From an uncultured Methanosarcinales archaeon (GTDB lineage Archaea; Halobacteriota; Methanosarcinia; Methanotrichales; Methanotrichaceae), in NCBI GenBank assembly GCA_963843555.1, contig CAWJKV010000016.1:32001-96000 (forward strand): 64,000 nt of DNA, read 5' to 3'. The translations under genes and the position numbers were made by a program. The notes beneath the pieces were generated by a model. That model made no database searches and was not told the origin of the DNA. It was given only the letters and a program-made list of their open reading frames with translations. This document shows positions 7,332 through 56,981 of the stretch, one piece after another (the first letter of the stretch is position 1; each line of letters opens with the position of its first letter).

Positions 7332-10189
7332 TTGCTGGAAAGTTATTCTGCAAAGGAGATCGAGGCCAAGTGGCAGAAGACCTGGGAGGAGATAGCGGTC
7401 TTCCAGCCCGAGCCAGACGAGCGCCAGAAGTTCTTCTTAACCATACCTTACCCTTATCTCAATGGAAATTTGCATGCCGGCCATACGCGCACTTTCACCA
7501 TTGGCGATGCCGTGGCTCGCTACCGGCGCATGCGCGGAGAGAATGTTCTCTTTCCCATGGCTTTTCACGCCACGGGAACGCCAATCGTCGGTCTCTCCGA
7601 ACTCATCGCCCAAAAGGACCCACTCATCTGGGAAGTTTACACCAAGCTGCACGGCATTCCTGAGGAGGAGCTGTCCGAGCTCAACACGCCGGAGAAGATC
7701 GTGCTCTACTTCCGCCGCCAGGCCAAGGCGGCCATGCAGTGCATCGGCTACTCCATCGATTGGAGGCGGGAGTTCACCACCACCGATCCCGCTTACAGCA
7801 AGTTCATCGAGTGGCAGTACGGCATTCTGCGGCGTCTGGATTATGTGGTCAAGGGCAGCCATCCCGTGCGCTGGTGCCCGCATGACCGGAATCCGGTGGA
7901 GGATCACGACATTCTCAAGGGCGAGGATGCCACCATCATGGACTTTTCCCTGATCAAGTTCCGAATGGGCGATACCATCCTGCCCTGCGCCACTCTGCGG
8001 CCGGAGACGGTCTTTGGAGTGGTCAACCTCTGGCTCAACCCGGATGTGACTTATGTCCTGGCCAGAGTGAACGATGAGACCTGGGTCGTCTCCAAGGAGG
8101 CATACGAGAAGCTGACCTTCACCGACCGGCAAGTGGCCTTTGGATCGGAGATCTCCGGGAAGGAGCTGATCGGCAAGACGGTCACGAATCCGCTCACAGG
8201 CACTGAGGTTCTCATTCTGCCCGCCGCTTTCGTGGACCCGGACAACGGCTCGGGGATCGTCATGTCCGTTCCGGCTCATGCGCCTTACGATTATCTGGCG
8301 CTGAAGGATCTGTACGACAAAGATCTATCCGAGTATGGCATCACTGCGGACCTGCGCGAGATCAAGTTCATCTCTCTGATCGAGTCGCCCGGATATGGAG
8401 AGTTTCCGGCGGTGGAAGCTGTAAACGAGCTGAAGGTGATGGACCAGAACGATCCCAAGGCAGAGGAGGCCACCAAGATCGTCTACCGGCGCGAGTTTCA
8501 TAACGGCGTTCTCAAGGCCAACACCGGCCGCTACGCCGGAATGGCCGTCTCCAAGATCAAGGATGTCCTGCTGGCCGACCTGATTGAGAAGGGCATCGCC
8601 GAGATCTTCTACGAGTTCTCAGAGAAGCCTGTCATCTGCCGCTGCGGCACGAGATGCGTCATCATGCTGGTGCGGGACCAGTGGTTCCTGGAGTACTCCG
8701 ATACCGAGTGGAAGGCCAATGTGCTCCGCTGCCTGGCAGAGATGCGCATCATCCCGCCGGAGTTCCGGGTGGAGTTCGAGAACAAGATCGACTGGCTGAA
8801 GGACAAGGCCTGCGCCCGGCGGAAGGGTCTGGGCACTCATCTGCCCTGGGATAAGGAGTGGCTCATCGAGTCTCTGGGAGACAGCACCATCTACATGGCC
8901 TACTACATTCTGGCCAAGTACGTGAACGCGGGCATGAAGATCGACAATCTGCCGCCTGAGTTCTTCGAGTACATATTCATGAATAACGGAGACGCCTGCC
9001 GCTGTGGCGGCGCCAGACGGGCCTGCCGCAGCAGACGGTGCAGCAGATCCACGACGACTTCGCCTACTGGTATCCTGTAGACCTGCGCACCTCGGGCAAG
9101 GATCTCGTCGCAAATCACCTGCTCTTCTTCCTCTACCATCACGTGGCCATATTCCCAGAAAGGCTCTGGCCCAAAGCCATTGCCGTGAACGGATTCGTCT
9201 CTCTGGAGGGCCAGAAGATGTCCAAGTCCAAGGGGCCGTTGCTCACGCTGCGCCAGGCCGTGGCCGAGAACGGGGCGGATGTGACGCGGCTGTATATCCT
9301 GGGCAATGCCGAGGGAACGGCGGATGTGGACTGGAGAAACGACGGAGTCGAGTCCACTCACGCCCATATGGAGAGGTTCTACAATCTGGCCAGGGAGATT
9401 CTGGCAGACAACAGTATCGATGAGAAGGCGGAGAAGACGCTGATCGATCGCTGGATGCTCTCCCGGTTGCAGAGGCGCATCGCAGGAGGCCACGACTGCC
9501 ATGGAGAACATCCAGACGCGGCGGGCGCTGCAGAGTGCCTTCTACCTGCTCTTCAACGATCTGCGCTGGTATCAGCGGCGGGGAGGCAAGAACCAGCTGC
9601 GTGCGGTCCTCTCGGCCTGGGTGCGGATGATGTCGCCCTTCACGCCGCATGTCTGCGAGGAGCTGTGGGCGGCGGGGTTGGGCGAGGGCTATGCATCGCT
9701 GGCTGACTGGCCGGTCGCGGATGAGACGCTCATCGACGAGAAGGCAGAGAAGGCCGAGGACCTCCTGGAGCGCACTCTGAACGATGTGCAGGAGATCGTG
9801 AATGTCACCAAGGCCAAGCCCGGCAAGATCACGCTCTACACCACGCCTGCCTGGAAGCGGGAGATGCTGCGGCTCGCCGTTGAGGCGGCAGCGGGCGGCA
9901 AGCTGGACATGGGCGCGCTCATGAAGGAGGCCATGGCCTCGCCCGCTATTGCGGAGCACAAGAAGGATGCGCCCAAGTATGCCCAGAAGCTGGCCAAGGC
10001 GGCCCACTCGCTCTCCGCGGAGGCGCTGGGGCTGGACGAGTTCGAGACGCTTGACACGGGAGAAGGCTGTACCTGCAGGCGGCGCTGGGCGTGCCGGTGG
10101 AGGTCTACTCGGCGGACGAGGCGGGAGAGGACCCCAAGGGCAAGAGCAAGCAGGCGGAACCGGGGAGGCCGGCGATATATATTGAATAG
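7332..10189 (+). CDS. leuS: Leucine--tRNA ligase (archaeal type), frameshifted
   Basis: PYPYLNGNLHAGH (HIGH), ATLRPET editing domain, KMSKSKG, C-terminal AEPGRPAIYIE. Confidence 0.96.
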
Positions 10190-10238
10190 GACTGCTCTGT
10201 TGATACCGGAATGAAATCAATCCATAGACGAGAAAGAG

Positions 10239-10541
10239 TTGAGGGCAATGAAGGGGGAAAAGCCATTCGCCTTGATTATCAGCAGAGGAGCCAACAAATC
10301 CCTGGATAAATTAGGAACAAGGACCGCGAAGAAGGTAATAGAAGCCCTGCGAGAGATTCAAAAGGATCCATTTAGGTCGCGATCAGGCGCTGACATAATG
10401 AAGATTAGAGGGAGAAAGGAACCACCGGCTTATAGACTGAAGTTTGGCCAGATACGAATTGAGTATGTCGTCTATGAGGAGGAGTCTTTGATCCAAGTGG
10501 TGCAGATCTTCAAGAGAAAGGGCGACTCCGATTACAGGTGA
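10239..10541 (+). CDS. RelE/ParE-family toxin
   Basis: ~100 aa basic protein, A.KSLDKL....KKVIEALREIQKDP, YRLKFGQIRIEYVV. Confidence 0.8.
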   Translation: MRAMKGEKPFALIISRGANKSLDKLGTRTAKKVIEALREIQKDPFRSRSGADIMKIRGRKEPPAYRLKFGQIRIEYVVYEEESLIQVVQIFKRKGDSDYR

Positions 10542-10578
10542 AACCATAAATAGTAGCGGATTTAATTAGAGGTTAACG

Positions 10579-10755
10579 ATGAAAAGCGAATTGCTGCCTG
10601 CAAAAAATGAGCCTTTCACAGAGGAGGAACTTGCGGATCTGGAAGAAGGCGAGGAGTCGGAATGCTCCGATCCACTGTGGGAAAGCGCCAGGAAGCACAG
10701 GAAGGAAGCCATAAGCCTGGAGGAGTACTGCCGCAAGCGAGGAATTGATATCTAG
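10579..10755 (+). CDS. Putative acidic antitoxin, 58 aa (not in ORF track)
   Basis: GAGGT RBS; MKSELLPAKNEPFTEEELADLEEGEESECSDPLWESARKHRKEAISLEEYCRKRGIDI with the ISLEEY tail typical of RelE partners; lies next to the toxin. Confidence 0.65.
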   Translation: MKSELLPAKNEPFTEEELADLEEGEESECSDPLWESARKHRKEAISLEEYCRKRGIDI

Positions 10756-10779
10756 GCGACTCCAGCGTGCAGGAACAGA

Positions 10780-10978
10780 CTGGCCAAGGCGGATCTACTC
10801 ACCCTCTGCGGAGGCGCTGGGGCTGGACGAGTTCGAGACGCTTGTCGAGGGAGAAGGCTTACCTGGCGGCGGCCTGGGCGTGCCTGTGGAAGTCTTTTCG
10901 GCGGACGAGGCTGGGGAGGACCCCAAGGGCAAGAGCCGACAGGCGGAACCGGGGAGGCCGGCGATTTATATCGAGTGA
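10780..10978 (+). repeat. Diverged duplicate of the leuS 3' end (first copy 9990-10189)
   Basis: Direct alignment of about 200 bp; encodes SAEALGLDEFETL...DPKGKSRQAEPGRPAIYIE*. Confidence 0.95.
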
Positions 10979-11501
10979 AGCCTCCTGTTCCTTTTTTTCA
11001 ATGTAGATATCAAAGGAGTCCGCTTACGCACCTTTTCAATTGGTTTGCAGCTTGGCCGCCGTCGCTCGGCCGGGCCGCGACCATAAGCCTCGCCCCTCAC
11101 CACAGCGCTGGAGGGCCGCAGGCCGAACTCGCGGCACCCCAGAAGATGTGCGAACATTGTCCCGGCAAGCATCAGATAGATCCCATCTGCATTAAATGAC
11201 CTCTAATTTGTCGCAAAAAAATTATCCCACAACTTCTTCCCGGGTTCCGCGCGGTGAAACGCGCTGGGGTGACGGGGCCCACTCCAGGCCGTGGCGGCCC
11301 CCCTAACCCCGCGTCCGCGGGGAACAATCAATGAAGCTCTGCCCTTCAGGTTTGGACGTTTTTGAGAAGGTCCCAGGCAGAGTGCCCTATCCGAACGGCT
11401 CACATGCCGTTATTGATGGAGAACGAAATAGATGCTCTGAGCGTCGAAGTATCTGGGGCACAGACATAGGCGCATACCAATGGGAGTGTGCAAGCGATGA
11501 T

Positions 11502-11728
11502 TCAAATGGGACTCTCGTCGAGCATTTCGACTTCCAGGATTTCTCCCTCATCGGTCACAATTAGCCTGAACTTCTTGCCTTCTTCTTCGAATAGATCCTG
11601 GACAAGGCAGATGACCACCCAGCGTTCAGCGTCTCTTTTTGCAGAAACCGTCTCAAAGATGAATTTGGTTAAGGTCTTGGTGTCCTGGAAATATCTTTTG
11701 CGGCGATTGTGGCTTCTCTGGCGTCCAT
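11502..11728 (-). CDS. Small hypothetical protein (~75 aa), one homopolymer frameshift
   Basis: Restoring one A gives MDAREATIAAKRYFQDTKTLTKFIFETVSAKRDAERWVVICLVQDLFEEEGKKFRLIVTDEGEILEVEMLDESPI. Confidence 0.5.
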
Positions 11729-12119
11729 ATCATCACTCGAAGTTCAAGATGATCAACACATTTATCAATTTTCCCAGGGACATGCAAAGCGAGATGAATT
11801 CGTGCCATTCTGCGCATGAGCCTGCCGAGGAAAAGCATCCCTGAGCGCGGAGACGCTGGAGCTGCACGGATTCGAGGTGATTTCCAGCTAGCGCGCACCC
11901 ACAGGCGCGGGACGGGAGGGTGGGCCAATGAGCAATATATATATATATATATTAATGAATTGATCTAAGATCTGCTATTTCCATATCTATATCAGTGTAT
12001 CGTTCATCATCTTAAACCTAATATATATTTTAAATACCTGATCACGATATTTTTAGTTGAGCTTTTGCACATCTCATCGGCTTTACTCTTAGAAACTGTT
12101 AAGATGTTGTTTAGCTAGA

Positions 12120-15100
12120 ATGCTCATTGATATGTCACGTGTGATGAATTCCCTTAAGGATCTAAAGGATACTACTCTATGGAAAAAATTAGATACAGCT
12201 TCCAAAGAGAATGAAGATGCGGAGTTTTTGGCGACAAATTTGCCGAAAATTTGTGAAGGAGCTAGCGAGCGTATGAAAGAGATGCCGTCATTGCATGGCC
12301 AATACACTCTCCACGACGAGACACATCTCCTACGCGTTACGGAATTAATGGCAAATATAATACCTGAAAAGGTACTTGATAAATTGAATCCAATTGAAAT
12401 TGCTTTGCTTATCTTATCAGCATTTTTCCATGATCAAGGAATGGTCTTAAGCAAAGAAGAATTAGTGTCTATGAATTCCGAATCAAAATTTAAAATATTT
12501 CGCGACAATTGGTGCATAAATCATCCGAATATAAGAGAGATTCAGATAATATTGCAGGACAAATCCATGAGCCAACCTGAAAAGGATAGAATTAGGCATA
12601 TGGAAAGGGAATTGTTTGACGGATTATTGACGGACTATATTAGGCAAAGCCATGCTCGTAGATCCAGAGATTTTGTTGTATCAACTTGTCATGATGATAG
12701 CTTATGGAAAATCGCAGGAACAAGTCTTACTTCATACGTTGGAAAGCTTTGTGAATCTCATTCATTATCAGCAACTGATTTAATACCCGAAAAGGGTTTT
12801 AACTATGATGAATCAATCGGACAATATAATATTAATCTATCATACCTTGCACTTGTTTTGAGATTGGCTGATATTCTTGACTTTGATCGTGATAGAACTC
12901 CTGATTCGTTATATAAAACGATAAATTTCACAAATGACGTTAGTTTAACTGAGTGGGAAAAGCATCGATCTGTTGAAGGTTGGAATATTGATCAAAAGAG
13001 TATCAGGTTCTCATTGCTTTGCGAAAGGCCAGAATATCAGAAAGCAGCCCTAGATTTCATGGATTTAATCGATAATGAACTAAAAGCTGCGATAAATTTA
13101 ACAAAATCTTATCCAAAAAATTTTGAGATATACTACTTCGACCTTCCTACATCTGTTGATCGAAAGCGTATTGTTGCCAAAGATGATGCGTATATCTATC
13201 ATGATCTAGAGTTTTCATTATCTCGCAACGAAATTGTTAAACTATTATTAACTGATAAATTATATAATTCTCCTGCAATTTGTGTCCGTGAATTACTGCA
13301 AAATTCACTAGACGCCTTAAGATATAGGCGATCACTTAAAAAATTTGATGGATCTGAATGGGCTGACGGCAAAGTGATTTTGGAGCATTTTGTGGATGAA
13401 TATGGGCATGAAGTTCTTAGATGTACCGACAATGGTGCGGGCATGGATGAGGACATAATAGAGAGATTCTTAACCAGAGTGGGCAGAAGTTATTATAGGT
13501 CTCCTGAATTTGAACAAGAAAGAATTATATTTTCCCAAAAAGGTGCGGATTTTGATCCTTGTTCTCAATTCGGAATCGGCTTCATGTCCTGTTTTATGAT
13601 TGGTGATCGAATTATAATAAAAACGCGTCGTGATTATGGTCCAGAAAAGGGTTGGGGTGAGCCCCTTCAGGTCGAAATAAATGGGCTAGGAGGCATGGTT
13701 GTGATTCGAAAAGGCTCTCCGAATCAATCACCAGGAACGATTGTGGAAATAACTGGAAGGAAGAAACCAAGACTATTTGATGAGTACGTAGACAAGATAA
13801 ATTTAATTGATGTCGTCGATGCCTACGCATTGGCCTGCGAATTCCCAATAGAAGCCCATTGCCTGATTGATGAAATAGGGAATGACATTTCGATTCCTTG
13901 CACAATTGTAATCCCAAAAACGGAAATTGAAATAGCTGGAATTAAGAATCAATTGAGCTTTGAGCAAGAATTTTTTGAGATCGATTCTAATTTGAGGGGA
14001 TACGTTCGAGCTAGCTTCCTCCTAAATAATTTGGGCAAAATTGATTTAGCTAATTCTGAAGCACATTGGGATATAGGTAACTTTGGACCTTGTCTTGTGC
14101 TGTCAAATGGCTTAAAAATAAAAGAATCATCAAGAAAGGGCGCAATTTGTTTGGATGGAATTTATGTGTGTGGCAATCCAGAGTATCGCAGCGAAAGACA
14201 TTTCATGAACTTCACAATTTGGAGCAATAATTATATCCCTCTCGAAGGAGATTATTATTTACTGGATGTAAGGGGCATTCTCAAACCACCCTTAACCACT
14301 TCGAGGGATCCTCCAAGAGATCCTCCTGAAGGGTCTCGTTGGGATCGACTTGCATGTATGGCAAATCTAGCAAGAGCCAGATTATGGGAGAAGGTAGCTC
14401 AAACCATCGGAGATAGATTGGATATTGATACATTCTGGAAATTAGCTTTGATACATAGAGCCCCTATCCCATGGTTGCCCGCAAATACAGTATGGTCAAA
14501 ATTATCTGTTCCCATTGTCAAGAATAATGAATTTATAGAATGGAGAGAGGTCTCATCCCTAGGGAATTTATATGTGAGAAAAGATACATCATCAGAAAAA
14601 GCAATATGCAGAGGGTTGTATCAAATTTTTACTGAAAACGGCTTGGAAATCAAAGCTTCGAAGGATTTAGCCAAATGGGAACACAAAGTCCGAATTCGTT
14701 ATGGGTGCCTAAATGAACAATTATTCAATCTAATTATTAGCTTTTCCATAGTTAAAATACTGCAAGGAGATGCCTGCATTTATCTGTCTGAGCCGTTACT
14801 AAATGAATCTCTGATTGTATATCGCATCAACTCAGTATTTTTGCTGCAATATGCAGGTGAGCTGGCCGAAGTTTTCACGGTTCAATTACCTTTTAAAAAT
14901 GCTAACCGCAATCATGCACTCGTTCGAACCGCATTCGATGCTAATTATGTAGAACATCTATCCGATATTCAAACATTTGCTCGTTCTTTGGTCCGATTCC
15001 TTGGTGATACGGATAATTTGAAAGCTCTAATGGATCCTGATGCATATAGCCACCCTGGGATTAATCGATGGATGCGTCATCTCGGCTACCAATACAATTC

Positions 15101-15218
15101 GATAGATTGGGAAAATTATGCTCCAGATCTTTCTCCTCCCTACAAGATTTGGCTGGGAGACCGAGGCATCTTTGAAATAACACATGATCATTTCGAAGCA
15201 TGGGCGTCTCTAAAATAA
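12120..15218 (+). CDS. HD-superfamily phosphohydrolase (HD-CE-like) fused to an Hsp90/GHKL ATPase, 1032 aa
   Basis: YTLHDETH..RV, FFHDQGM, HARRS, CESH, LRLADILD; then LYN....VRELLQNSLDA, DNGAGM, VGRSYY, FGIGFMSCF; AT-rich compared with the backbone. Confidence 0.85.
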   Translation: MLIDMSRVMNSLKDLKDTTLWKKLDTASKENEDAEFLATNLPKICEGASERMKEMPSLHGQYTLHDETHLLRVTELMANIIPEKVLDKLNPIEIALLILSAFFHDQGMVLSKEELVSMNSESKFKIFRDNWCINHPNIREIQIILQDKSMSQPEKDRIRHMERELFDGLLTDYIRQSHARRSRDFVVSTCHDDSLWKIAGTSLTSYVGKLCESHSLSATDLIPEKGFNYDESIGQYNINLSYLALVLRLADILDFDRDRTPDSLYKTINFTNDVSLTEWEKHRSVEGWNIDQKSIRFSLLCERPEYQKAALDFMDLIDNELKAAINLTKSYPKNFEIYYFDLPTSVDRKRIVAKDDAYIYHDLEFSLSRNEIVKLLLTDKLYNSPAICVRELLQNSLDALRYRRSLKKFDGSEWADGKVILEHFVDEYGHEVLRCTDNGAGMDEDIIERFLTRVGRSYYRSPEFEQERIIFSQKGADFDPCSQFGIGFMSCFMIGDRIIIKTRRDYGPEKGWGEPLQVEINGLGGMVVIRKGSPNQSPGTIVEITGRKKPRLFDEYVDKINLIDVVDAYALACEFPIEAHCLIDEIGNDISIPCTIVIPKTEIEIAGIKNQLSFEQEFFEIDSNLRGYVRASFLLNNLGKIDLANSEAHWDIGNFGPCLVLSNGLKIKESSRKGAICLDGIYVCGNPEYRSERHFMNFTIWSNNYIPLEGDYYLLDVRGILKPPLTTSRDPPRDPPEGSRWDRLACMANLARARLWEKVAQTIGDRLDIDTFWKLALIHRAPIPWLPANTVWSKLSVPIVKNNEFIEWREVSSLGNLYVRKDTSSEKAICRGLYQIFTENGLEIKASKDLAKWEHKVRIRYGCLNEQLFNLIISFSIVKILQGDACIYLSEPLLNESLIVYRINSVFLLQYAGELAEVFTVQLPFKNANRNHALVRTAFDANYVEHLSDIQTFARSLVRFLGDTDNLKALMDPDAYSHPGINRWMRHLGYQYNSIDWENYAPDLSPPYKIWLGDRGIFEITHDHFEAWASLK

Positions 15219-15379: not shown

Positions 15380-15556
15380 ATATGCTCCCCGCGCGTATGC
15401 CCGTCCATACATGCACGCGGCCCGCCTGATTGCCCATCGACATGAGCCCGGACGACCCGGACCACAGGCGTCAGCAACGAGCGCAGCCCGGGGCAACGGC
15501 CGCAACCACTGTCGATGGCTGCCTGGGAGACTAACCATGCTCGCTGGATCGCAAAA
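15380..15556 (+). repeat. GC-rich inter-cassette repeat, copy 1
   Basis: Core AGCAACGAGCGCAGCC at 15473-15488; GGATCGCAAA end at 15546-15555. Confidence 0.85.
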
Positions 15557-15624
15557 CTGGAGAATGCTTATGAATTGTCTCCAAAAAAATCTCAGCACAT
15601 CTGGATCACAAGATTTCATTTTGC

Positions 15625-15972
15625 CTATTTTGCAACCTGAGATCGGACAAATTCCATGAATTGACGCAAGCTTATGCCGGGATTATCATCCATATAGCTC
15701 TCCTCAACTGCATCCTGAGAACCGTTATGAAAGTGCTTGGGATAAGTCGATACACTCTGCCAGTTTGAATCTGGAAAATTGTCGTGACGTTACATGGAGC
15801 CATCGATGTGTCTTCTCTCCCAATGATAGGAAAACCGACCTGAGATTTTTAAGGAGAATCATATATCGATAAATGAGCCATCATCCACAAATGCTCTGAG
15901 CTTGCCGCGAGAAATGATGGAATCAGTCGAAATATCTGCATATTCTGTATCGATGATTCTCTTCAGCATCAT
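15625..15972 (-). pseudogene. DUF6516/TumE-like toxin, copy 1, with two in-frame stops
   Basis: LRAFVDDGSFIDI*FS...FSYHWER...M*RHDNFPD...STYPKHFH; stops at 15859-15861 and 15790-15792. Confidence 0.7.
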
Positions 15973-15980
15973 TAGATCTG

Positions 15981-16265
15981 CTACTGTTGAGGAAGGTTCT
16001 TCATCGCGGCTAATAGCTCATCTCTTCTGGATTCCAGGTAGTCGAGCTCCTGAAAATCGTCCAGAGCATCCTCCCCCCTAACTTCTCCCTTTTTCAGCTT
16101 ATCATCCAGCTCAAATATGGATCTCACACCATGCTTTGTCCTGATCTCGAATACCTCTGCTTCAATGCATCTCAGTTCTTTCTCCAAGAAGGCCTTGATG
16201 CTAGCCCGAGCAAGAACGTCACGATCCATCTTCAGGGCACTTGCAACCTCATCGATAACTTCCAT
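15981..16265 (-). CDS. Putative antitoxin, copy 1 (partner of DUF6516-like toxin)
   Basis: 94 aa acidic helical protein MEVIDEVASALKMDRD...KHGVRSIFELD, directly upstream of the toxin. Confidence 0.65.
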   Translation of the reverse strand: MEVIDEVASALKMDRDVLARASIKAFLEKELRCIEAEVFEIRTKHGVRSIFELDDKLKKGEVRGEDALDDFQELDYLESRRDELLAAMKNLPQQ

Positions 16266-16379
16266 GATCGAATACCATCCAATAAGACTGTCATTAAGAT
16301 ATTTCAATCCTACCGTTTCTAAAATATGCGTGTATAGAGAAGGATGCCAGATTCCTACTCTCTGAAAGAGATGAACAAT

Positions 16380-16500
16380 TGGCCTCCAGCGCGCCCGAGC
16401 ACGAGCGCCTTCCAGGCAAGCCAGTCCGCCCAAATGACATCGCAGCAAGCCCGGACGTTCCCGGACCACAGGCGGCGGCCACGAGCGCAGCCGGGCCGGA
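16380..16500 (+). repeat. GC-rich inter-cassette repeat, copy 2 (3' truncated)
   Basis: Core GGCCACGAGCGCAGCC at 16477-16492. Confidence 0.85.
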
Positions 16501-16582
16501 GGCAAGGCAAGTGGAGGTTCGGTGTTTCTGTAACAGAAAAGATTTATTGATAGGACGACAAATAGTCAAATGAAGGCTGTCC

Positions 16583-16867
16583 ATGAGTTACGAAAAAATC
16601 ACTTACCGCCTTCATGCGGTTCAGAGGATGTTCGAGCGCAAGATCAGTGCAGAAGAGGTTCGGTACGTGCTGGAGACGGGAGAGGCGATTGAAGAATATC
16701 CTGACGATACTCCATACCCAAGTTGCCTGATCCTTGGAAGCTACAAAGGTCGCCTCATCCATGTAGTAGCGGCAAATAATTTAATCGACGAGGAGAAGAT
16801 CGTAATCACAGTCTACGAGCCAGATCCTTCTGAATGGGACCCGGATTGTAGGGAGAGGATTTCATGA
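16583..16867 (+). CDS. DUF4258-family protein (RelE-like toxin candidate)
   Basis: HAVQRMFERKIS.EEV..VLETGE.IEEYPDDTPYPSCLILG...IHVV...VITVYEPDP..W. Confidence 0.85.
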   Translation: MSYEKITYRLHAVQRMFERKISAEEVRYVLETGEAIEEYPDDTPYPSCLILGSYKGRLIHVVAANNLIDEEKIVITVYEPDPSEWDPDCRERIS

Positions 16868-17091
16868 AATGCGTTATTTGCAGAAAAGCATCTACGAAGC
16901 CCGGCACAACAACAGTTACTTTTGAGCGTGGTTGCCTGACAATGGTGGTGAAATGCGTGCCCGCTCAAGTTTGCCCCAATTGTGGCGAAGCATACATAAG
17001 CGAGTTGGTTACGGCCGAGTTGCTCGATGATGCAGAAGAGCGAGCCAAGACTGGTGCCCAAGTGGAAATTCGACAATATGTGGCGGCCTGA
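16864..17091 (+). CDS. YgiT/MqsA-type zinc-finger protein (antitoxin candidate)
   Basis: MKCVIC...VPAQVCPNCGEAY; ATGA overlap with the DUF4258 gene. Confidence 0.85.
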   Translation: MKCVICRKASTKPGTTTVTFERGCLTMVVKCVPAQVCPNCGEAYISELVTAELLDDAEERAKTGAQVEIRQYVAA

Positions 17092-17139
17092 TTTACTTTT
17101 ATCGGACGGGCTGCCTGACGGCCCAATTGGTAACCGCCC

Positions 17140-17300
17140 ACCTCATGGCAAGCTCCTGCGCGTGTATGTGCCAACCTTACGTGCATGGGTCCGCGCGCAG
17201 ACCGACTTCACAGAAGCCCGGACAGCCCGGCCTCAGGCGACAGGCCACGAGTGCAGCCGCACCACCAACGGTCGATGGGCTGCCTGGCGCTGCTGCCAGT
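17140..17300 (+). repeat. GC-rich inter-cassette repeat, copy 3
   Basis: Core GGCCACGAGTGCAGCC at 17243-17258, followed by CAACGGTCGATGGGCTGCC. Confidence 0.85.
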
Positions 17301-17342
17301 AATCGACAAGTATTGCTCAGTCGGAGATTCTTCTGAATGATT

Positions 17343-17786
17343 TTATTCCCGCCCATCAGTCCTTGAGGCGTTTTCCAACCATTTTTCAGGGCTTATCGCT
17401 AGCACTGATTTCGGACAGCGCTCTAACATCTCTTCATCCCACGAAATCAAAACGGCATCAAAATCCAGAGCAACAGCTGCATAAACAGCATCTGCACCAC
17501 GAAGGCGATTTTCAATAGCAATCTCTGCCGCACGAAGAGCGAGAGTCAGATCCAGAGGAACCTGTGTCATTCCAGGAAAATGCTTTATGAGATTGACCAG
17601 CCTCCCGGATAAAAGCGAGTCTCCGGTCGGCCTGGCAATAGCGGCCCCACACTCGGCAAGCACAAGAGTAGGGCAGAATATTTTTGCTCCTTTTACGCTA
17701 TGCAGGAAACGGTAGCTCCGAGGATATTGTTTTTCAGAAGGTCGGGCTGCAGATACAAAGACGCTGGCATCAATTGTCAGGTTCAT
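17343..17786 (-). CDS. vapC: VapC-family PIN-domain toxin
   Basis: LTIDASVFV, PTLVLAEC, LRGADAVYAAVA, LISWD. Confidence 0.88.
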   Translation of the reverse strand: MNLTIDASVFVSAARPSEKQYPRSYRFLHSVKGAKIFCPTLVLAECGAAIARPTGDSLLSGRLVNLIKHFPGMTQVPLDLTLALRAAEIAIENRLRGADAVYAAVALDFDAVLISWDEEMLERCPKSVLAISPEKWLENASRTDGRE

Positions 17787-18040
17787 CTCCTCATCTCGGC
17801 AAGAATCTCCAAAGCGCTCTTCTTGCTCTTCCATGCCGAATCGATTTCATGGGCCAAAGCCAGCCACTCTGCATCCCAGTCAATTTCCTTTACCACATCC
17901 TCAGAGGATCTTAGTGGAACCAGTACAGCCATGGGTCTGCCCTCTGGGCCGATCAGAGTAGCTGTCTCACCTGGAGATAGTTTCGCTAGAATATCTTCAA
18001 GATTCTTTTTGGCCGAGTCTACAGAAACCTCTACCGACAT
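17783..18040 (-). CDS. Antitoxin (Phd/YefM-like) paired with VapC
   Basis: VSVDSAKKNLEDIL....GE...LI...GRPMAVLVP; ATGA overlap with vapC. Confidence 0.75.
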   Translation of the reverse strand: MSVEVSVDSAKKNLEDILAKLSPGETATLIGPEGRPMAVLVPLRSSEDVVKEIDWDAEWLALAHEIDSAWKSKKSALEILAEMRR

Positions 18041-18164
18041 GATTGACTCCTTCGTAATAATAATTTCATTTTCTTTGATTTATGTACAGCATGCTATTAA
18101 AAGTTAACCAAAAGCAAATCATCGTAGTCTGAGATCAATTGCATCGAAAGTCGCCAGGCCAAAA

Positions 18165-18322
18165 CGGACTCCCCCTGCTCTAGCACCTGTCAGGCAATCC
18201 AGCCCGCCGTGACGACTGTGCCGCTGGCCCGGCCCATAGGCGGTGGCCACGAGCGCAGCCGCACCACCAACGGTCGATGGGCTGCCCGACGCTGCTGCCA
18301 GCGGCCCGCAAGGATCGCAAAA
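18165..18322 (+). repeat. GC-rich inter-cassette repeat, copy 4 (a partial extra copy lies at about 18500-18580)
   Basis: Core at 18245-18260; GGATCGCAAA at 18312-18321. Confidence 0.85.
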
Positions 18323-18632
18323 GCTGTAGCTTGCAACAGATCGCTCTGCTAAAAAGTCTCTGTGAGTCCTCTGTGCGCTCTGTGTCTTTGTGGTGAAATT
18401 GTTAGTTGTTAAGTCATAATTATCGGCTAATATTAATAACAAACCAAATGCATTGCTTTACCAATCCTGCACCAGGATAACTGCTTTTTCAGTAGCAAGC
18501 ACCACCTGGCCTCAGGCCCGACCGGCCTCCTGCCCGCCCGGACAGCAGCACAGCAAGCCAGGACGCCCCGGCCAACGGTTGGGGACAGAAAACCAGGACA
18601 CTCTTGCGGGAACTGTCGACAGGCATTATTGT

Positions 18633-19139
18633 TCAATCCTCATTCTCGCTCGAAGTATGCAATGCCTTTTTGTATATTTCTTCGCCTATCCAGAAACCAG
18701 CGTCATTTCTCAACCTGTCGAGCTCCTCTTTGAGCGATGCTATTCTTCCCTCTCGCTTGGCCCTAATCAAGATACCTATCACGCCGGATATGTTCAATCC
18801 ATACACTCCAGCCGTCTTTCTCGCCTCGCTTTCGTCCAAAAATACAACATCCGGATTCAGCTCGACTGCCAGAGCTATAGTCTCAGATTCGCCTTCATGT
18901 AGATCCCTTTGTAGAAAACAGATAAGAGGGCGATTTGCAGGTGCAACGACATCTATCCTTCCCAATTGTCGTCCCTCTTCTACCTCAGAGGAGCCGGGCC
19001 ATTTCCGGCCTTCCTGAACTACCTCTCTCCAAACAGCCGGTGCTATGAGAATCTTTTTATGAAACTCGAAGAGAAGATACAAGCGTCCAATCTTTGCCAG
19101 ATGTATTAGCGTTGAAGAATCACTGATTGCACCCGGCAT
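18633..19139 (-). CDS. DUF3368-type PIN-domain toxin
   Basis: AISDSSTLIHLAKIG.L.LL, LHEGESETIALA, LDESEAR, GVIGIL, GFWI. Confidence 0.85.
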   Translation of the reverse strand: MPGAISDSSTLIHLAKIGRLYLLFEFHKKILIAPAVWREVVQEGRKWPGSSEVEEGRQLGRIDVVAPANRPLICFLQRDLHEGESETIALAVELNPDVVFLDESEARKTAGVYGLNISGVIGILIRAKREGRIASLKEELDRLRNDAGFWIGEEIYKKALHTSSENED

Positions 19140-19389
19140 ATTTTAAATCCTCTTCTAGCTCAGCTTCTCCATAGTGACGGTTAACCTTACGCTGGCCAAG
19201 AAGATCTTCGAACTGCAGACGCGTAAGGCCACTTAGGGCAGAGGCTTTTCCAGAGGATAGCATTCCTCGCTGGTAAAGCGCCAGAGCTAATTCTTTATAG
19301 AGTTCTGCTTCCACATCATCAGGTGGGACCCTAAGAGCATTTATTATCTCTTCAGGGATCTTTAAGGTTCGAGCGCTCATTTGATTCAT
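19120..19389 (-). CDS. UPF0175-family antitoxin
   Basis: ELALALYQRGMLSSGKASALSGLTR..FEDLL. Confidence 0.88.
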   Translation of the reverse strand: MNQMSARTLKIPEEIINALRVPPDDVEAELYKELALALYQRGMLSSGKASALSGLTRLQFEDLLGQRKVNRHYGEAELEEDLKYAGCNQ

Positions 19390-19489
19390 GCTCCATTTCC
19401 ATAATAATAGCAGAGATTATTAATTAAGCTTTGGCAGCAGAAGAGAATTCCGAGTTTTTAGAAGCTCTTGTGATATCTTATGAGCAACC

Positions 19490-19670
19490 CGACCGGCCTT
19501 CTGCTCTCTCACGAGCGCTCATCAGGCAATCCAGCCGCCCAGACGACAACGCCGCAAGCCCAGACACTCGGACCACATGCGGCGGCCACGAGCACAGCCC
19601 GGGGCAACGGCCGCAACCAACGGTCGATGGCTGCCTGGCGAGACTAACCCATGCTCGCTGGATCGCAAAA
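19490..19670 (+). repeat. GC-rich inter-cassette repeat, copy 5
   Basis: Core at 19584-19599; GGATCGCAAA at 19660-19669. Confidence 0.85.
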
Positions 19671-19738
19671 CTGGAGAATGCTTATGAATTGTCTCCAAAA
19701 AAATCTCAGCGCATCTGGATCAACATGATTTCATTTGC

Positions 19739-20087
19739 CTATTTGGCAAGCTGAGATCGGACAAATTCCATGAAATGAACGTAAGCTTATGTCCGGATTA
19801 TCATCCATATAGCTCTCCTCAACTGCATCCTGAGAACCGCTATGGAAGTGCTTGGGATAAGTCGATACACTCTGCCAGTTTGAATCTGGAAAATTGTCGT
19901 GACGGTACATGGAGCCATCGATGTGTCTTCTCTCTCAATGATAGGAAAACCGACCTGAGATTTTTAAGGAGAACCATATATCGATAAATGAGCCATCATC
20001 CACAAATGCTCTGAGCTTGCCGCGAGAAATGATGGAATCAGTCGAAATATCTGCATATTCTGTATCGATGATTCTCTTCAGCATCAT
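19739..20087 (-). pseudogene. DUF6516/TumE-like toxin, copy 2, with one in-frame stop
   Basis: Near-identical to 15625-15972; TGG>TGA at 19935-19937. Confidence 0.7.
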
Positions 20088-20098
20088 TAGATCTGCTA

Positions 20099-20380
20099 CT
20101 ATTGAGGAAGGTTCTTCATCGCAGCTAATAGCTCATCTCTCCTTGATTCCAGGTAGTCGAGCTCCTGAAAATCGTCCAGAACATCCTCCTCCCTAACTTC
20201 TCCCTTTTTCAGCTTATCATCCAGCTCAAATATGGATCTCACACCATGCTTTGTCCTGATCTCGAATATCTCTGCTTCAATGCATCTCAGTTCTTTCTCC
20301 AAGAAGGCCTTGATGCTAGCCCGAGCAAGAACGTCACGATCCATCTTCAGGGCACTTGCAACCTCATCGATAACTTCCAT
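20099..20380 (-). CDS. Putative antitoxin, copy 2
   Basis: Near-identical to 15981-16265, intact frame. Confidence 0.65.
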   Translation of the reverse strand: MEVIDEVASALKMDRDVLARASIKAFLEKELRCIEAEIFEIRTKHGVRSIFELDDKLKKGEVREEDVLDDFQELDYLESRRDELLAAMKNLPQ

Positions 20381-20494
20381 GATCGAATACCATCCAATAA
20401 GACTGTCATTAAGATATTTCAATCCTACCGTTTCTAAAATATGCGTGTATAGAGACGGATGCCAGATTCCTACCCTCTGAAAGAGATGGACATT

Positions 20495-20677
20495 TGGCCT
20501 CCAGCGTGCCCGAGTACGAGCGCCTGCCAGGCAAGCCAGTCCGCCCAAATGACATCGCAGGAAGCCCGGACGGCCCTGCCCGAGGCGGCGGCCACGAGCG
20601 CAGCCCGGGCAACGGCCCAACCAAGGCCAGCGGCTGCCCCGGCGCTGCTGCGCCAGCGGGCCGCAAGGATCGCAAAA
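20495..20677 (+). repeat. GC-rich inter-cassette repeat, copy 6
   Basis: Core at 20590-20605; GGATCGCAAA at 20667-20676. Confidence 0.85.
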
Positions 20678-20715
20678 CATTTGATTTGGCAAAATCGAAA
20701 TATATCATCCAACTT

Positions 20716-20931
20716 TTACACGCTTACCTCTACAGAAGCCGCCGTGGTAGTTGGTTCAGGTATGCTTAGAGACGCTTCCTTTAGCCCTTCCAGGTGGAAC
20801 TCTATTGCCTCTTTCATCAACTCTAGCGTCTCCTTTCTAGTTGGACCGGTTGCTATGACACCTGGCAAATCCGGACAATAGGCGGCGTAATTATTTTCAG
20901 CTTTTTCAATAATGATCAGATACTCAGTCAT
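20716..20931 (-). CDS. hicB: HicB-family antitoxin
   Basis: YLIIIEK...YAAYCPDLPGVIATGPT.KE....MKEAIEFHLEGL....IPEP. Confidence 0.9.
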   Translation of the reverse strand: MTEYLIIIEKAENNYAAYCPDLPGVIATGPTRKETLELMKEAIEFHLEGLKEASLSIPEPTTTAASVEVSV

Positions 20932-21142
20932 CTTTTCCGACCTCCTTGATACCGCTTTGTCTTAAAATGCTATTCAAGGTACCCTTTGGTACTTCATCAT
21001 CCAAATTCCCTGAGATGGTCACCAATCCACTCTTGAAATGATGCTTGTACTGTCTGTGACTGCCTCTGGTTCTATCAAGGAACCATCCATCCTCTTCTAC
21101 TAGCTTGATGACGGCTCGGACTTTCAAATTGTTAGCCCTCAT
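20924..21142 (-). CDS. hicA: HicA-family toxin
   Basis: VIKLVEEDGW...RTRGSHRQYKH....VTI......GTLNSILRQSG. Confidence 0.9.
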   Translation of the reverse strand: MRANNLKVRAVIKLVEEDGWFLDRTRGSHRQYKHHFKSGLVTISGNLDDEVPKGTLNSILRQSGIKEVGKDD

Positions 21143-21259
21143 TGAGATATTTAACCAATCATAATAGCCTCTCTAGACATATAATTGATTTGCCGCGTGG
21201 CAAATCCTGGCGCCCTCGATCTATTGGCAGCCCACGTCCGCGCCGCGTTACCTTCGATG

Positions 21260-21445
21260 GCATGCTCCCGCGCATGGGTACCCGCTCGTGCGCACACGCG
21301 AGCCCGCCCGGATGGCAGCGCAGCAAGCCCGGCTGGCCAGGCCCGCTGGACTGCGGCGGCCACGAGCGCAGCCCGGGGCAACGGCCGCAATCGCAGTCGA
21401 TGGGCTGCCCGGTGCTGCTGCCAGGAGCCCGCAAGGATCGCAAAG
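21260..21445 (+). repeat. GC-rich inter-cassette repeat, copy 7
   Basis: Core at 21358-21373; GGATCGCAAA at 21435-21444. Confidence 0.85.
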
Positions 21446-21673
21446 CCGGAGGCCCCTTGATTGCTCCAAGGAGTCTCAAGTCTCTGCCTCTGTGTTCGGC
21501 CTGTGTTAATTGATATAATTATCTGACAATAATACTAAATCATAATCTCTTTCCAAAATCCGGTCTGCTGAATTGCCTCCCACCAGAGGCTTTCGTCACC
21601 TGGCCCCAGTCCCGACCGAGGAATTGCGAGCTAAAAGCTATATCCCATCACTGACAATAACTTCAAAGCGGCA

Positions 21674-21904
21674 ATGGATAAAGCGGTCTATGAGATCATT
21701 GACGATCCAGAGCCCTTTTATGGCGAGATACCGGAGCTTCAGGGTGTCTGGGCTTCAGGAAAGACATTGGAGGCCTGCCGTGACACCCTCATGAGCGCCC
21801 AGGAAGACTGGATTGCCTTCCGCCTTAGAACGGGACGGTCCATTCCGCCGATAGGTGGAGCTTCAATCGCAGTTTCATTGGAGCCGGTGAGCGTTGTTGA
21901 ATAA
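21674..21904 (+). CDS. HicB-family antitoxin (its partner is reduced to a short stub)
   Basis: FYGEIPELQGVWASGKTLEACRDTL....EDWI....IPPI. Confidence 0.8.
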   Translation: MDKAVYEIIDDPEPFYGEIPELQGVWASGKTLEACRDTLMSAQEDWIAFRLRTGRSIPPIGGASIAVSLEPVSVVE

Positions 21905-31737: not shown

Positions 31738-32497
31738 GGTAACTCTTGATCAGATCGTTTCTATCCGCTATTCCCGCGAGCTTTCCTTTATCCACAACTG
31801 ATATTCTGCCCACGTCATGCTTGAGCATCAGCTCGATGGCTGCGCGCACGCTTTCTTCCGGCCTTATGCTATATAATGGCGAGCTCATAAATTTCTCTAC
31901 TGGCATCGAATCCGACGGCCTTCTCTCACTCTCCTTGCCAATCCTGGCGGTGCCTTTTAGAAGATCAAATCTGGTGATCATTCCCATTGGCTTGCCGTCC
32001 TTAACCACAGGCAACCCGGTGAAGTCCTTCTCCACCATTTTGCCCCATACCTCAGTCATAGGGTCATCCGGGCTGGCGGTTACAACTTTGGTGGTCATGA
32101 CCTCGCTAATCAACTTATCAGGAACTTTGGATATGTCAATGTGCTTGAATATATCCATGAGGGTGACAACTCCCTTTAGCGTCAGGTTCTCCTGAGAATC
32201 CACCACGGGAAGCAAGGAGCTCTTCTCCTTGAGCATGATCCTCGCCGCTTCTAATACATCCGTTTTTTCAGTTACAGTGGGAACCTGCACCATGAAACCC
32301 GATATAGTAACATTCGATTTTGTAGACGTCACTCGCAGCATATCCTGATTTGTTACGATCCCCAGGACACGGCGTTTGCTATCCACGACCGGCAGTCCAC
32401 GCACATGGTTGTCTCTGATCAACTGACGCGCTTTGGTCAGAAAAGTCGAATCCTCAACGTATAGAGGATCTCTGGATAAAATATCTTCTACTAACAT
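31727..32497 (-). CDS. CBS-domain protein
   Basis: Four CBS motifs. Confidence 0.9.
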   Translation of the reverse strand: MLVEDILSRDPLYVEDSTFLTKARQLIRDNHVRGLPVVDSKRRVLGIVTNQDMLRVTSTKSNVTISGFMVQVPTVTEKTDVLEAARIMLKEKSSLLPVVDSQENLTLKGVVTLMDIFKHIDISKVPDKLISEVMTTKVVTASPDDPMTEVWGKMVEKDFTGLPVVKDGKPMGMITRFDLLKGTARIGKESERRPSDSMPVEKFMSSPLYSIRPEESVRAAIELMLKHDVGRISVVDKGKLAGIADRNDLIKSYLGE

Positions 32498-56341: not shown

Positions 56342-56981
56342 TCAGGACTTATCTCCTGCAAGGAATCCGGGCAACTTAGACCGCATATACGCCTCGCGGC
56401 GGTGGTTGGGACTGACTTTGAGGTATATGCTCGTTGTGGCCAGGGACGCATGCCCTAGCTGGTCCTGCACGTCGCCCACAGGTAACGCCGCTATCCAGGC
56501 TCCAGACGGCGAAGCTATGCCTGAGCATGTGATGGTGGACTCGATGTCTGTTCTTGCCTGCCTTGTCCTGACGCTTGACCTCTTGCAGACCAGCTCTGGT
56601 AGCTATGCCATCGAGGATATTCTGGGCCTGTCGGGAAGTGATGTGGCTATCTCGATAGCTCTGGAACAGCCAGCCCTTAGAACGCCCTCCGAGCAGCTTT
56701 GATATGGCCTCGGCGACCTGGGGGAGAAGAACCACCGTGCGCGCCTTTTTGAACTTGGCATTGATGACGGGGACATGCAGATACCCTTTGCTGAAATCTA
56801 CATCTTCGGCTCTGATCTGGGTCATCTCACTCACACGTAGGCCAGCTCCAGCCAGAAGGAGCAGTATACATCGCTCTCTCGTTCGTCCTGGGAGGACTTG
56901 AGCAAGGCGTTGAACTCTGCATGGGTGAGATGAGAAAAGGAAGACCTCATTACTTTTAAGCGTACGTGGTCGTCGTGCCAA
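56342..56981 (-). CDS. Tyrosine recombinase/integrase, catalytic domain only, frameshifted
   Basis: GLRVSE (R), K..K.R, HMLRHSFA (HxxR), and in the next frame LGHASLATTSIY (H, Y). Confidence 0.85.

Follow-up and report, generated by a model that had tools for sequence, protein, structure and literature searches.

By what route could an archaeon gather and trade many toxin-antitoxin (TA) pairs without integrons? The question is raised by an array of TA pairs, each set apart from the next by a GC-rich repeat, in a 64,000-nt stretch of DNA (the window; positions 32,001 to 96,000 of contig CAWJKV010000016.1, assembly GCA_963843555.1, here G000) from an uncultured Methanosarcinales archaeon of the family Methanotrichaceae. 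A preliminary description made from the sequence alone had likened the array to an integron, with a repeat of ~150-250 bp as the recombination site of its cassettes. The repeat belongs to a unit that builds co-oriented TA arrays at several chromosomal sites across Methanothrix. This unit of ~387 bp separates TA cassettes, and host homologous recombination in its GC-rich part probably excises, duplicates and exchanges them without a dedicated integrase. Below, G-numbers denote genomes, C-numbers contigs of G000, L-numbers individual loci and F-numbers cassette families.

The window array and its repeat unit

The seven core motifs of the preliminary description lie on the plus strand where it had placed them. 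A search allowing up to 3 mismatches gave 9 matches against 0.67 expected, the two extra ones being 3-mismatch hits outside the seven copies. As had been claimed, one repeat copy occupies each gap between cargo modules, and the cargo (42-48% GC) is lower in GC than the spacers (57-70% GC). The TA nature of the cargo is supported by Pfam and NCBIfam matches, several of which score under the curated cut-off; they comprise TumE-like (twice), DUF4258 with a YgiT/MqsA-type protein, PIN with Phd, DUF3368 with UPF0175, and HicA with HicB. The array and its borders are laid out as follows.

12120..15218, plus strand: HD-CE + HATPase gene at the array head, in the slot behind leuS, where relatives carry other defence genes
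15418..15593, plus strand: repeat copy 1, unit 103-285, GC-rich part only, core motif at 15473 (nhmmer map)
15620..15972, minus strand: TumE-like toxin gene, cassette F4 copy a, with two in-frame stops; intact relatives match PF20126
15981..16265, minus strand: putative antitoxin partner of F4, no Pfam match; the same gene adjoins TumE in four other genomes
16346..16507, plus strand: repeat copy 2, unit 28-188 (nhmmer map)
16583..17091, plus strand: cassette F1, DUF4258 + YgiT-type zinc finger (MqsA-like), present in 10 genomes
17203..17343, plus strand: repeat copy 3, unit 116-284 (nhmmer map)
17343..18040, minus strand: cassette F21, PIN (VapC-like) + Phd/YefM (Pfam/NCBIfam)
18114..18581, plus strand: repeat copy 4, near-complete unit (15-384) that continues into the next unit start (2-154)
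18357..18438, plus strand: conserved core, with the arm of 7-nt words at ~18357-18394 and the AT-rich dyad at 18412-18438
18633..19389, minus strand: cassette F6, DUF3368 (PIN-like, PADLOC PDC-S70) + UPF0175
19488..19714, plus strand: repeat copy 5, unit 57-292 (nhmmer map)
19731..20380, minus strand: second copy of cassette F4 (copy b), with the partner gene and a TumE-like gene that is likewise broken; 96% identity with copy a
20468..20678, plus strand: repeat copy 6, unit 35-250 (nhmmer map)
20716..21142, minus strand: cassette F2, HicA + HicB (Pfam/NCBIfam)
21294..21552, plus strand: repeat copy 7, unit 97-384; its arm and dyad are worn (~21511-21535)
21674..21904, plus strand: UPF0150 (HicB-like) gene, beyond the last repeat

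In-frame stops break both TumE-like toxin genes in this assembly; because leuS, upstream of the array, is also split over three frames, some of the gene breaks may be assembly errors. The two F4 copies are 96% identical over 1005 bp, and both ends of this duplication lie inside repeats near unit position 140.

A profile built from the seven window copies retrieved a second array in G000 (C11, 47-52 kb) and a single copy on C2, and iterated searches on the retrieved regions extended the element to a 387-bp tandem unit. The repeat of the preliminary description is therefore real and does delimit cassettes, but its length was that of fragments: the window copies are pieces of 140-470 bp, and the full unit and its apparent link to palindromes (see below) had been missed. 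Three parts make up the unit: a GC-rich stretch of ~280 bp, a series of 7-nt words termed the arm, and a dyad rich in AT. The dyad has two 10-bp arms on either side of a variable centre of 7 bp, the middle of which holds the least conserved base. In the window, the most conserved part of the unit is reached only by the copies at 18114 and 21294. Among 148 spacers from 55 loci, 109 carry the dyad, a share inflated by the many loci that were found through the dyad itself, and 38 extra tandem units hold no cargo.

With the GC-rich part as query, matches were obtained in 16 of 24 same-genus genomes, while the three genomes of a second family gave one marginal match (E 0.006) and the 13 of a third gave none. 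Unit positions 108-386 matched 45 of 58 same-genus and 2 of 46 other-genus genomes; this query contains the arm, so its tally counts arm-only matches too. The exact degenerate dyad pattern occurred in 53 stretches of the GTDB collection, all Methanothrix or Methanotrichaceae by record title, bar two labelled 'Methanosarcinales' and a 2-kb contig from a bacterial bin. The assignment of the window to the genus is based on these titles together with the 'same genus' labels. A viral carrier was rejected because the same pattern gave 0 matches in IMG/VR. Wherever a locus had at least two GC-part hits (42 loci), the repeats were co-oriented without exception.

Several known kinds of repeat were compared with the unit. 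As the preliminary description had held, it is not CRISPR, with a unit of 387 bp, a median cargo of 712 bp and no Rfam match above threshold (a single sub-threshold hit). A protein-coding repeat was rejected, since six-frame translation of the seven copies gave no common frame and their alignment contains many 1-bp indels. A MITE or IS end was also rejected, the GC-rich unit being tandem, one-armed, variably truncated and clustered, although target-site duplications were not searched systematically. G000 carries two IS200-type Y1 transposases and a fragment, one of them 1.1 kb from the single C2 repeat copy; a RAYT/IS200 origin was rejected, as that one alone of the three Y1 loci had a unit-HMM hit. 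Other IS genes (IS605 TnpB, IS110, DDE types) border some arrays but vary by locus and were rejected likewise. A role of the unit as structured non-coding RNA, or as a promoter cassette controlling the TA genes, is scarcely credible. A TATA-like word does lie on the minus strand of the dyad, but cargo runs in both directions relative to the repeat, the folding z of full units (14 of 49) averages -0.2 to -0.8, RNAalifold gives a consensus of -5.7 kcal/mol to which covariation adds no bonus, and no Rfam family matches; a structured RNA or hairpin was rejected for lack of a fold signal and of such a family.

Cassette pool and exchange between arrays

The 103 cargo segments from 24 genomes comprised 89 segments in 22 shared families and 14 singletons. 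The earlier proposal that cassettes are gained, duplicated and shuffled is supported by this shared pool, by variable cassette order and by the F4 duplication in the window. At the leuS site the order is F4-F1-F21-F6-F4-F2 in the window, F1-x-F6-F3-F21 in G012, F22-F7-F1-F3-F2 in G008, x-F4-F12 in G019 and F2-F18 in G016. Of 53 adjacencies between family members, 49 were distinct, against 50.0 ± 1.6 with shuffled labels (P = 0.36); since this order matches random, it is not inherited in blocks. Orientation relative to the repeat was the same in 332 of 332 within-family matches, and the cassette-repeat junctions were family-specific (0 of 5000 shuffles as tight). The fixed junctions and orientation across species indicate that cassettes travel with their repeat stubs, and the retention by each family of its own junctions suggests that capture is rare and movement frequent.

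Cassettes were more alike than housekeeping genes in the pairs G000-G012 (91 vs 84%), G000-G008 (89 vs 85%), G006-G012 (93-94 vs 88%) and G012-G016 (92-95 vs 87-88%), which is likely to reflect exchange between species. To locate where shared identity stops, 53 cassette pairs at 93% identity or above were mapped, giving 106 ends. In agreement with the expectation that breakpoints fall inside the repeat, 71 of these ends lay in a repeat of at least one partner. For 48 ends the unit position was the same in both partners, and these were spread over unit 10-378, with two in the arm/dyad region and one in the dyad. A discrete, attC-like recombination site, as the preliminary description had pictured it, is not supported by this scatter. 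The window array, L019 and L129, which almost lack the dyad, carry shared cassettes in other orders. The scattered ends and the shuffling of dyad-less arrays favour homology-driven exchange over a site-specific recombinase.

Integrons and CALINs, archaeal ones included, likewise consist of co-oriented, small, TA-rich cassettes in variable order, often with no recombinase nearby (PMC9668308, in the part covered). The Methanothrix arrays share the trait of a co-oriented cassette array in variable order; they differ in that neither attC boxes nor a hairpin is present and crossovers have no fixed position. In line with the earlier remark on missing attC boxes, a single one of 159 spacers had box pairs, whereas shuffles gave 2.8, and the spacers gave no folding signal; attC sites were rejected. 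The integron integrase (TIGR02249) had no match at E ≤ 1e-30 in 59 genomes, a search in which no control genome gave a match.

Sites of the pdif type are 28-bp XerC/D sites in alternating orientation, and pdif modules often carry TA pairs. In Acinetobacter, accessory modules are shuffled between these conserved boundary elements (PMC13141974 and PMC6449649, in the parts covered), as cassettes are here, but the Methanothrix boundary is a long direct repeat and crossovers avoid its dyad. It is very improbable that the AT-rich 10-7-10 dyad is used like a pdif site by a XerA-like host tyrosine recombinase, which would make these dif-module arrays. The dyad has two conserved arms around its least conserved base, its left arm agrees at 9 of 11 positions with the dif arm of Pyrococcus abyssi (hand count, PMC2958812), and G000 contains three tyrosine-recombinase matches, one of them in the window (56376-56981). 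The right arm, however, agrees at 4 of 11 positions at 6-bp spacing (hand count), so that the dyad fails the test for an 11-6-11 site with two recombinase-binding arms. With one of the 48 ends in the dyad, five of the seven window spacers lacking it and dyad-less arrays shuffled too, dif/pdif module boundaries were rejected. The dyad also aligns with the loop of a palindrome described below. The nearest of the three tyrosine-recombinase matches is 35 kb away, and the earlier statement that no cognate recombinase lies beside the repeats was borne out by the arrays inspected (open reading frames by eye or Pfam; not all scanned). The open reading frame at 56376-56981 (minus strand) encodes a short XerA-like protein with the catalytic domain only, apparently frameshifted near its end.

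In the route we propose, one arm and the loop of a palindrome associated with GxxExxY nuclease genes (see below) would have been joined to GC-rich sequence and then amplified in tandem. Each TA pair would have been captured once inside a unit, which would explain the family-specific junctions. A cassette would then move with a repeat stub on each side, and the stub could pair with any other copy, by pop-out and pop-in or by double crossover at variable points in the GC-rich part. TA addiction would slow the loss otherwise caused by direct repeats, a stabilising role cited for bacterial integron arrays in the part of PMC9668308 covered. All enzymatic steps of this route are our inference.

Several observations weigh against homologous recombination in the GC-rich part. 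Conservation within the unit is highest in the dyad and arm (~1.5 bits vs ~1.0), which homology-driven exchange leaves unexplained. Cassettes showed no excess of identity between L013 and L044 (flank 96.7%, cassettes 94.8-97.3%) or between G015 and G024 (flank 90-94%, shared segments 92-95%). Among the mapped ends, 35 of 106 lay outside the mapped repeat, and the pairs compared are not independent; moreover, the GC-rich part is nearer the cargo than the dyad is, and mutation, or gene conversion at a later stage, could cut shared identity short. Identity among the window copies is only 70-95%, and their longest perfect matches measure 10-59 bp, which makes them a poor substrate for unaided recombination. 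No excised circle was found; one go-back joint around F1 (one contig, one run) could equally be a tandem copy or a repeat mismatch. Read contigs from 4 of the 24 listed runs, taken at 90% likeness, gave 12 listed joints within the array, ten with both sides in mapped repeats and two with one side within 30 bp of one; such joints often arise from repeats or other organisms and were not counted as evidence. The HD-CE gene had no cover by these read contigs.

The palindrome arm, GxxExxY genes and TA loci

The core at 18357..18438 is homologous to the 3' flank of a GxxExxY gene and to half of a palindrome dispersed in G000. Judged by alignment, the core of the unit is one arm plus the loop of a palindrome that also flanks GxxExxY genes: the array core and ~74 bp after the stop-codon region of one such gene are 79-86% identical (E down to 1.8e-17). 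Across G000 the arm recurs in ~100-bp palindromes made of an arm, a 45-bp loop and an inverted arm, which stand singly between housekeeping genes and also serve as spacers of other TA arrays. Two such palindrome-delimited arrays, at C9:77400-85200 and C6:98400-101000, contain internal duplications, and they and the GC-type arrays have no TA cassette in common above 75% identity. The full palindromes do fold, 10 of 11 having a negative z (as low as -7.8); the one-armed array cores gave no folding signal (z +0.4 to +1.6). In many units (L036:3709, L071:2433, L085:30 and others) the first word is a variant which, by eye, looks like the GxxExxY arm of another type present at L096 and L105, so more than one arm family may have contributed to the unit as a mosaic.

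Short words are known beside GxxExxY genes (TIGR04256/PF13366, PDDEXK_3), and this association was tested here. PF13366 matches were present in 17 of 81 genomes of the family and in 9 of 34 of the genus. The arm stood beside the gene in 12 of 17 loci examined, and the other five had other short-word arms (by eye). GxxExxY genes sit in palindrome-delimited arrays and have TA-like neighbours; the surroundings are often sugar-pathway genes (by eye). In G000, two stumps comprising the promoter and 5' part of the gene run straight into an arm (C9:80082-80231 and C9:81305-81451). The gene product had no sequence match in the PDB, its AlphaFold model from nine sequences reached a pLDDT of 37, and the Atlas gave only PF13366 clusters.

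These data bear on a second explanation, in which the GxxExxY nuclease, acting in trans or arriving by gene transfer, cuts or nicks the arm or dyad, and repair of the break drives cassette capture and exchange. The arrays would then be a domesticated GxxExxY-palindrome element, and the nuclease would add a trigger to homologous repair rather than replace it. Besides the arm beside the gene and the stumps retained on C9, this explanation is favoured by the genes' place within palindrome-delimited TA arrays, by the repeat matches in all seven same-genus genomes with a full-length gene, and by the arm and dyad being the best conserved part of the unit; there is a precedent in SsnA, which cleaves single-stranded DNA close to the repeat that flanks it (PMC11893778, in the part covered). 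We nevertheless consider it rather unlikely. Neither G000 (82% complete) nor the closed genome G019 has an intact gene, only the nine of 34 same-genus genomes mentioned have a family match, and tblastn found no GxxExxY gene inside the 55 GC-type loci. The arm is missing from five of the seven window spacers, the one-armed core does not fold as most full palindromes do, and the part of PMC3424549 covered lists the function of the family as 'Unknown', with many transfers. A fuller version, to which we give slightly more room while holding it only tentatively, is that Methanothrix domesticated an orphan GxxExxY gene and its arm as an equivalent of the integron, the nuclease cutting the arm and repair through the GC-rich unit capturing and trading TA and defence cassettes across species.

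The distribution of arm and unit also bears on whether the arrays have any selected role. A passive by-product, with a selfish tandem repeat in tolerant intergenic sites where TA modules landed and were shuffled incidentally, appears unlikely to us. It agrees with the palindromes dispersed among housekeeping genes, where 15 of 25 palindrome-only sites in G000 are not near a TA-like gene, with the 39 of 60 TA-like modules in G000 that have none of these repeats nearby, with the separation of TA modules by other repeat families as well, and with the 13 of 58 same-genus genomes without a match. Against it, the GC-rich unit is almost never alone, and the cassette junctions and orientation are constant across species. 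In G000, 11 of 12 GC-rich sites lay within 700 bp of a TA-like gene, compared with 4% of random positions, a result favoured by TA queries that were derived from these arrays; the twelfth site is the end of the C11 array. This agrees with the confinement to TA loci expected by the preliminary description, for which copies scattered regardless of cargo would have meant an ordinary MITE or REP: such scattering was found for the arm, as dispersed palindromes, and not for the GC-rich unit. All four loci found in the closed genome G019 carry TA-like genes (one read by eye). Exceptions were single repeat pieces beside non-TA genes, for example at L127 and L017, and cargo with an acylphosphatase domain.

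Acylphosphatase-domain proteins of 170-220 aa are recurrent cargo in both array types (L028:9196-9735, L030:4343-4927, G000 C9:79502-80023). Three recurrent two-gene cassettes, F10, F11 and one more (L016:9540-10058, L016:14647-15185, L022:5620-6120), had no toxin match in Pfam or PADLOC and are candidate new TA or defence pairs.

Neighbouring features, known systems and significance

The slot between leuS and the array (window 9080-15218) is a defence hot spot, compared here over L011, L015, L020, L133, L137 and L138. It holds HD-CE + HATPase in the window, SIR2-STAND in G019, CBASS with QueC/TGT/cyclase/2TM in G016 and a SIR2/ThsA-like gene in G101; Gabija stands at the array head in G012 and G024 and, by eye, at L137 and L138. 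The leuS 3' end is duplicated around a ParE-type TA pair (window 9990-10185 and 10780-10974, 88% over 197 bp), a typical insertion scar. A second GC-rich repeat of up to ~300-370 bp (window 11036-11436, G000 C2:246-249 kb and many contigs) is dispersed over G000 in dozens of copies, of which several adjoin TA genes, and at G000 C11:20300-29800 five TA-like modules are interspersed with at least seven copies of a third repeat family (60-140 bp).

The closest parallel to homologous exchange within the unit is the PeSL of T4-type phages, an intergenic repeat that flanks accessory genes and has been proposed as a homologous-recombination site for their excision, insertion and shuffling (PMC2839356, here and below in the part covered). 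In both systems repeats flank cargo, exchange falls inside the repeat and no dedicated integrase is involved, and PeSL crossovers give chimeric repeats (PMC2839356). PeSLs, in contrast, consist of a promoter and a stem-loop, occur in phages and yield mini-circles detected by inverse PCR (PMC2839356), whereas the Methanothrix unit is chromosomal, archaeal, ~387 bp long and unstructured, with cargo in both directions. With GxxExxY palindromes the arrays share the arm and loop of the unit core, and palindromes and genes occur in sister TA arrays; they differ in that the arm is single, lies within a GC-rich tandem unit and spaces TA cassettes rather than bracketing a nuclease gene. In REPIN-RAYT (PMC3116915) and Ssn/NTS (PMC11893778), too, the gene of a small nuclease has its own repeat on its flanks, and repeat copies without the gene are dispersed and clustered, but their enzymes have other folds (HUH and GIY-YIG, respectively), and the parts of these two papers covered do not describe repeats that delimit a shuffled pool of TA cassettes. 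No description of the present TA arrays was found in the literature searched, a scope outside which subscription journals and supplements fell.

Cassette shuffling in acetoclastic Methanothrix is genus-wide and multi-locus, with a pool of at least 22 mobile cassettes. Short-read assemblies break at the arrays because of their repeats, and the arrays are usable as strain-level markers. The arrays are also tied to the GxxExxY family, with the 74-bp arm and dyad as a named candidate substrate; a nuclease-driven platform, if true, would work without a site-specific recombinase and would give PF13366 its first function. Exchange through the GC-rich unit would show how these archaea can collect many TA pairs and trade them with no integron involved and, if true, would be integron-like gene shuffling without an integrase.

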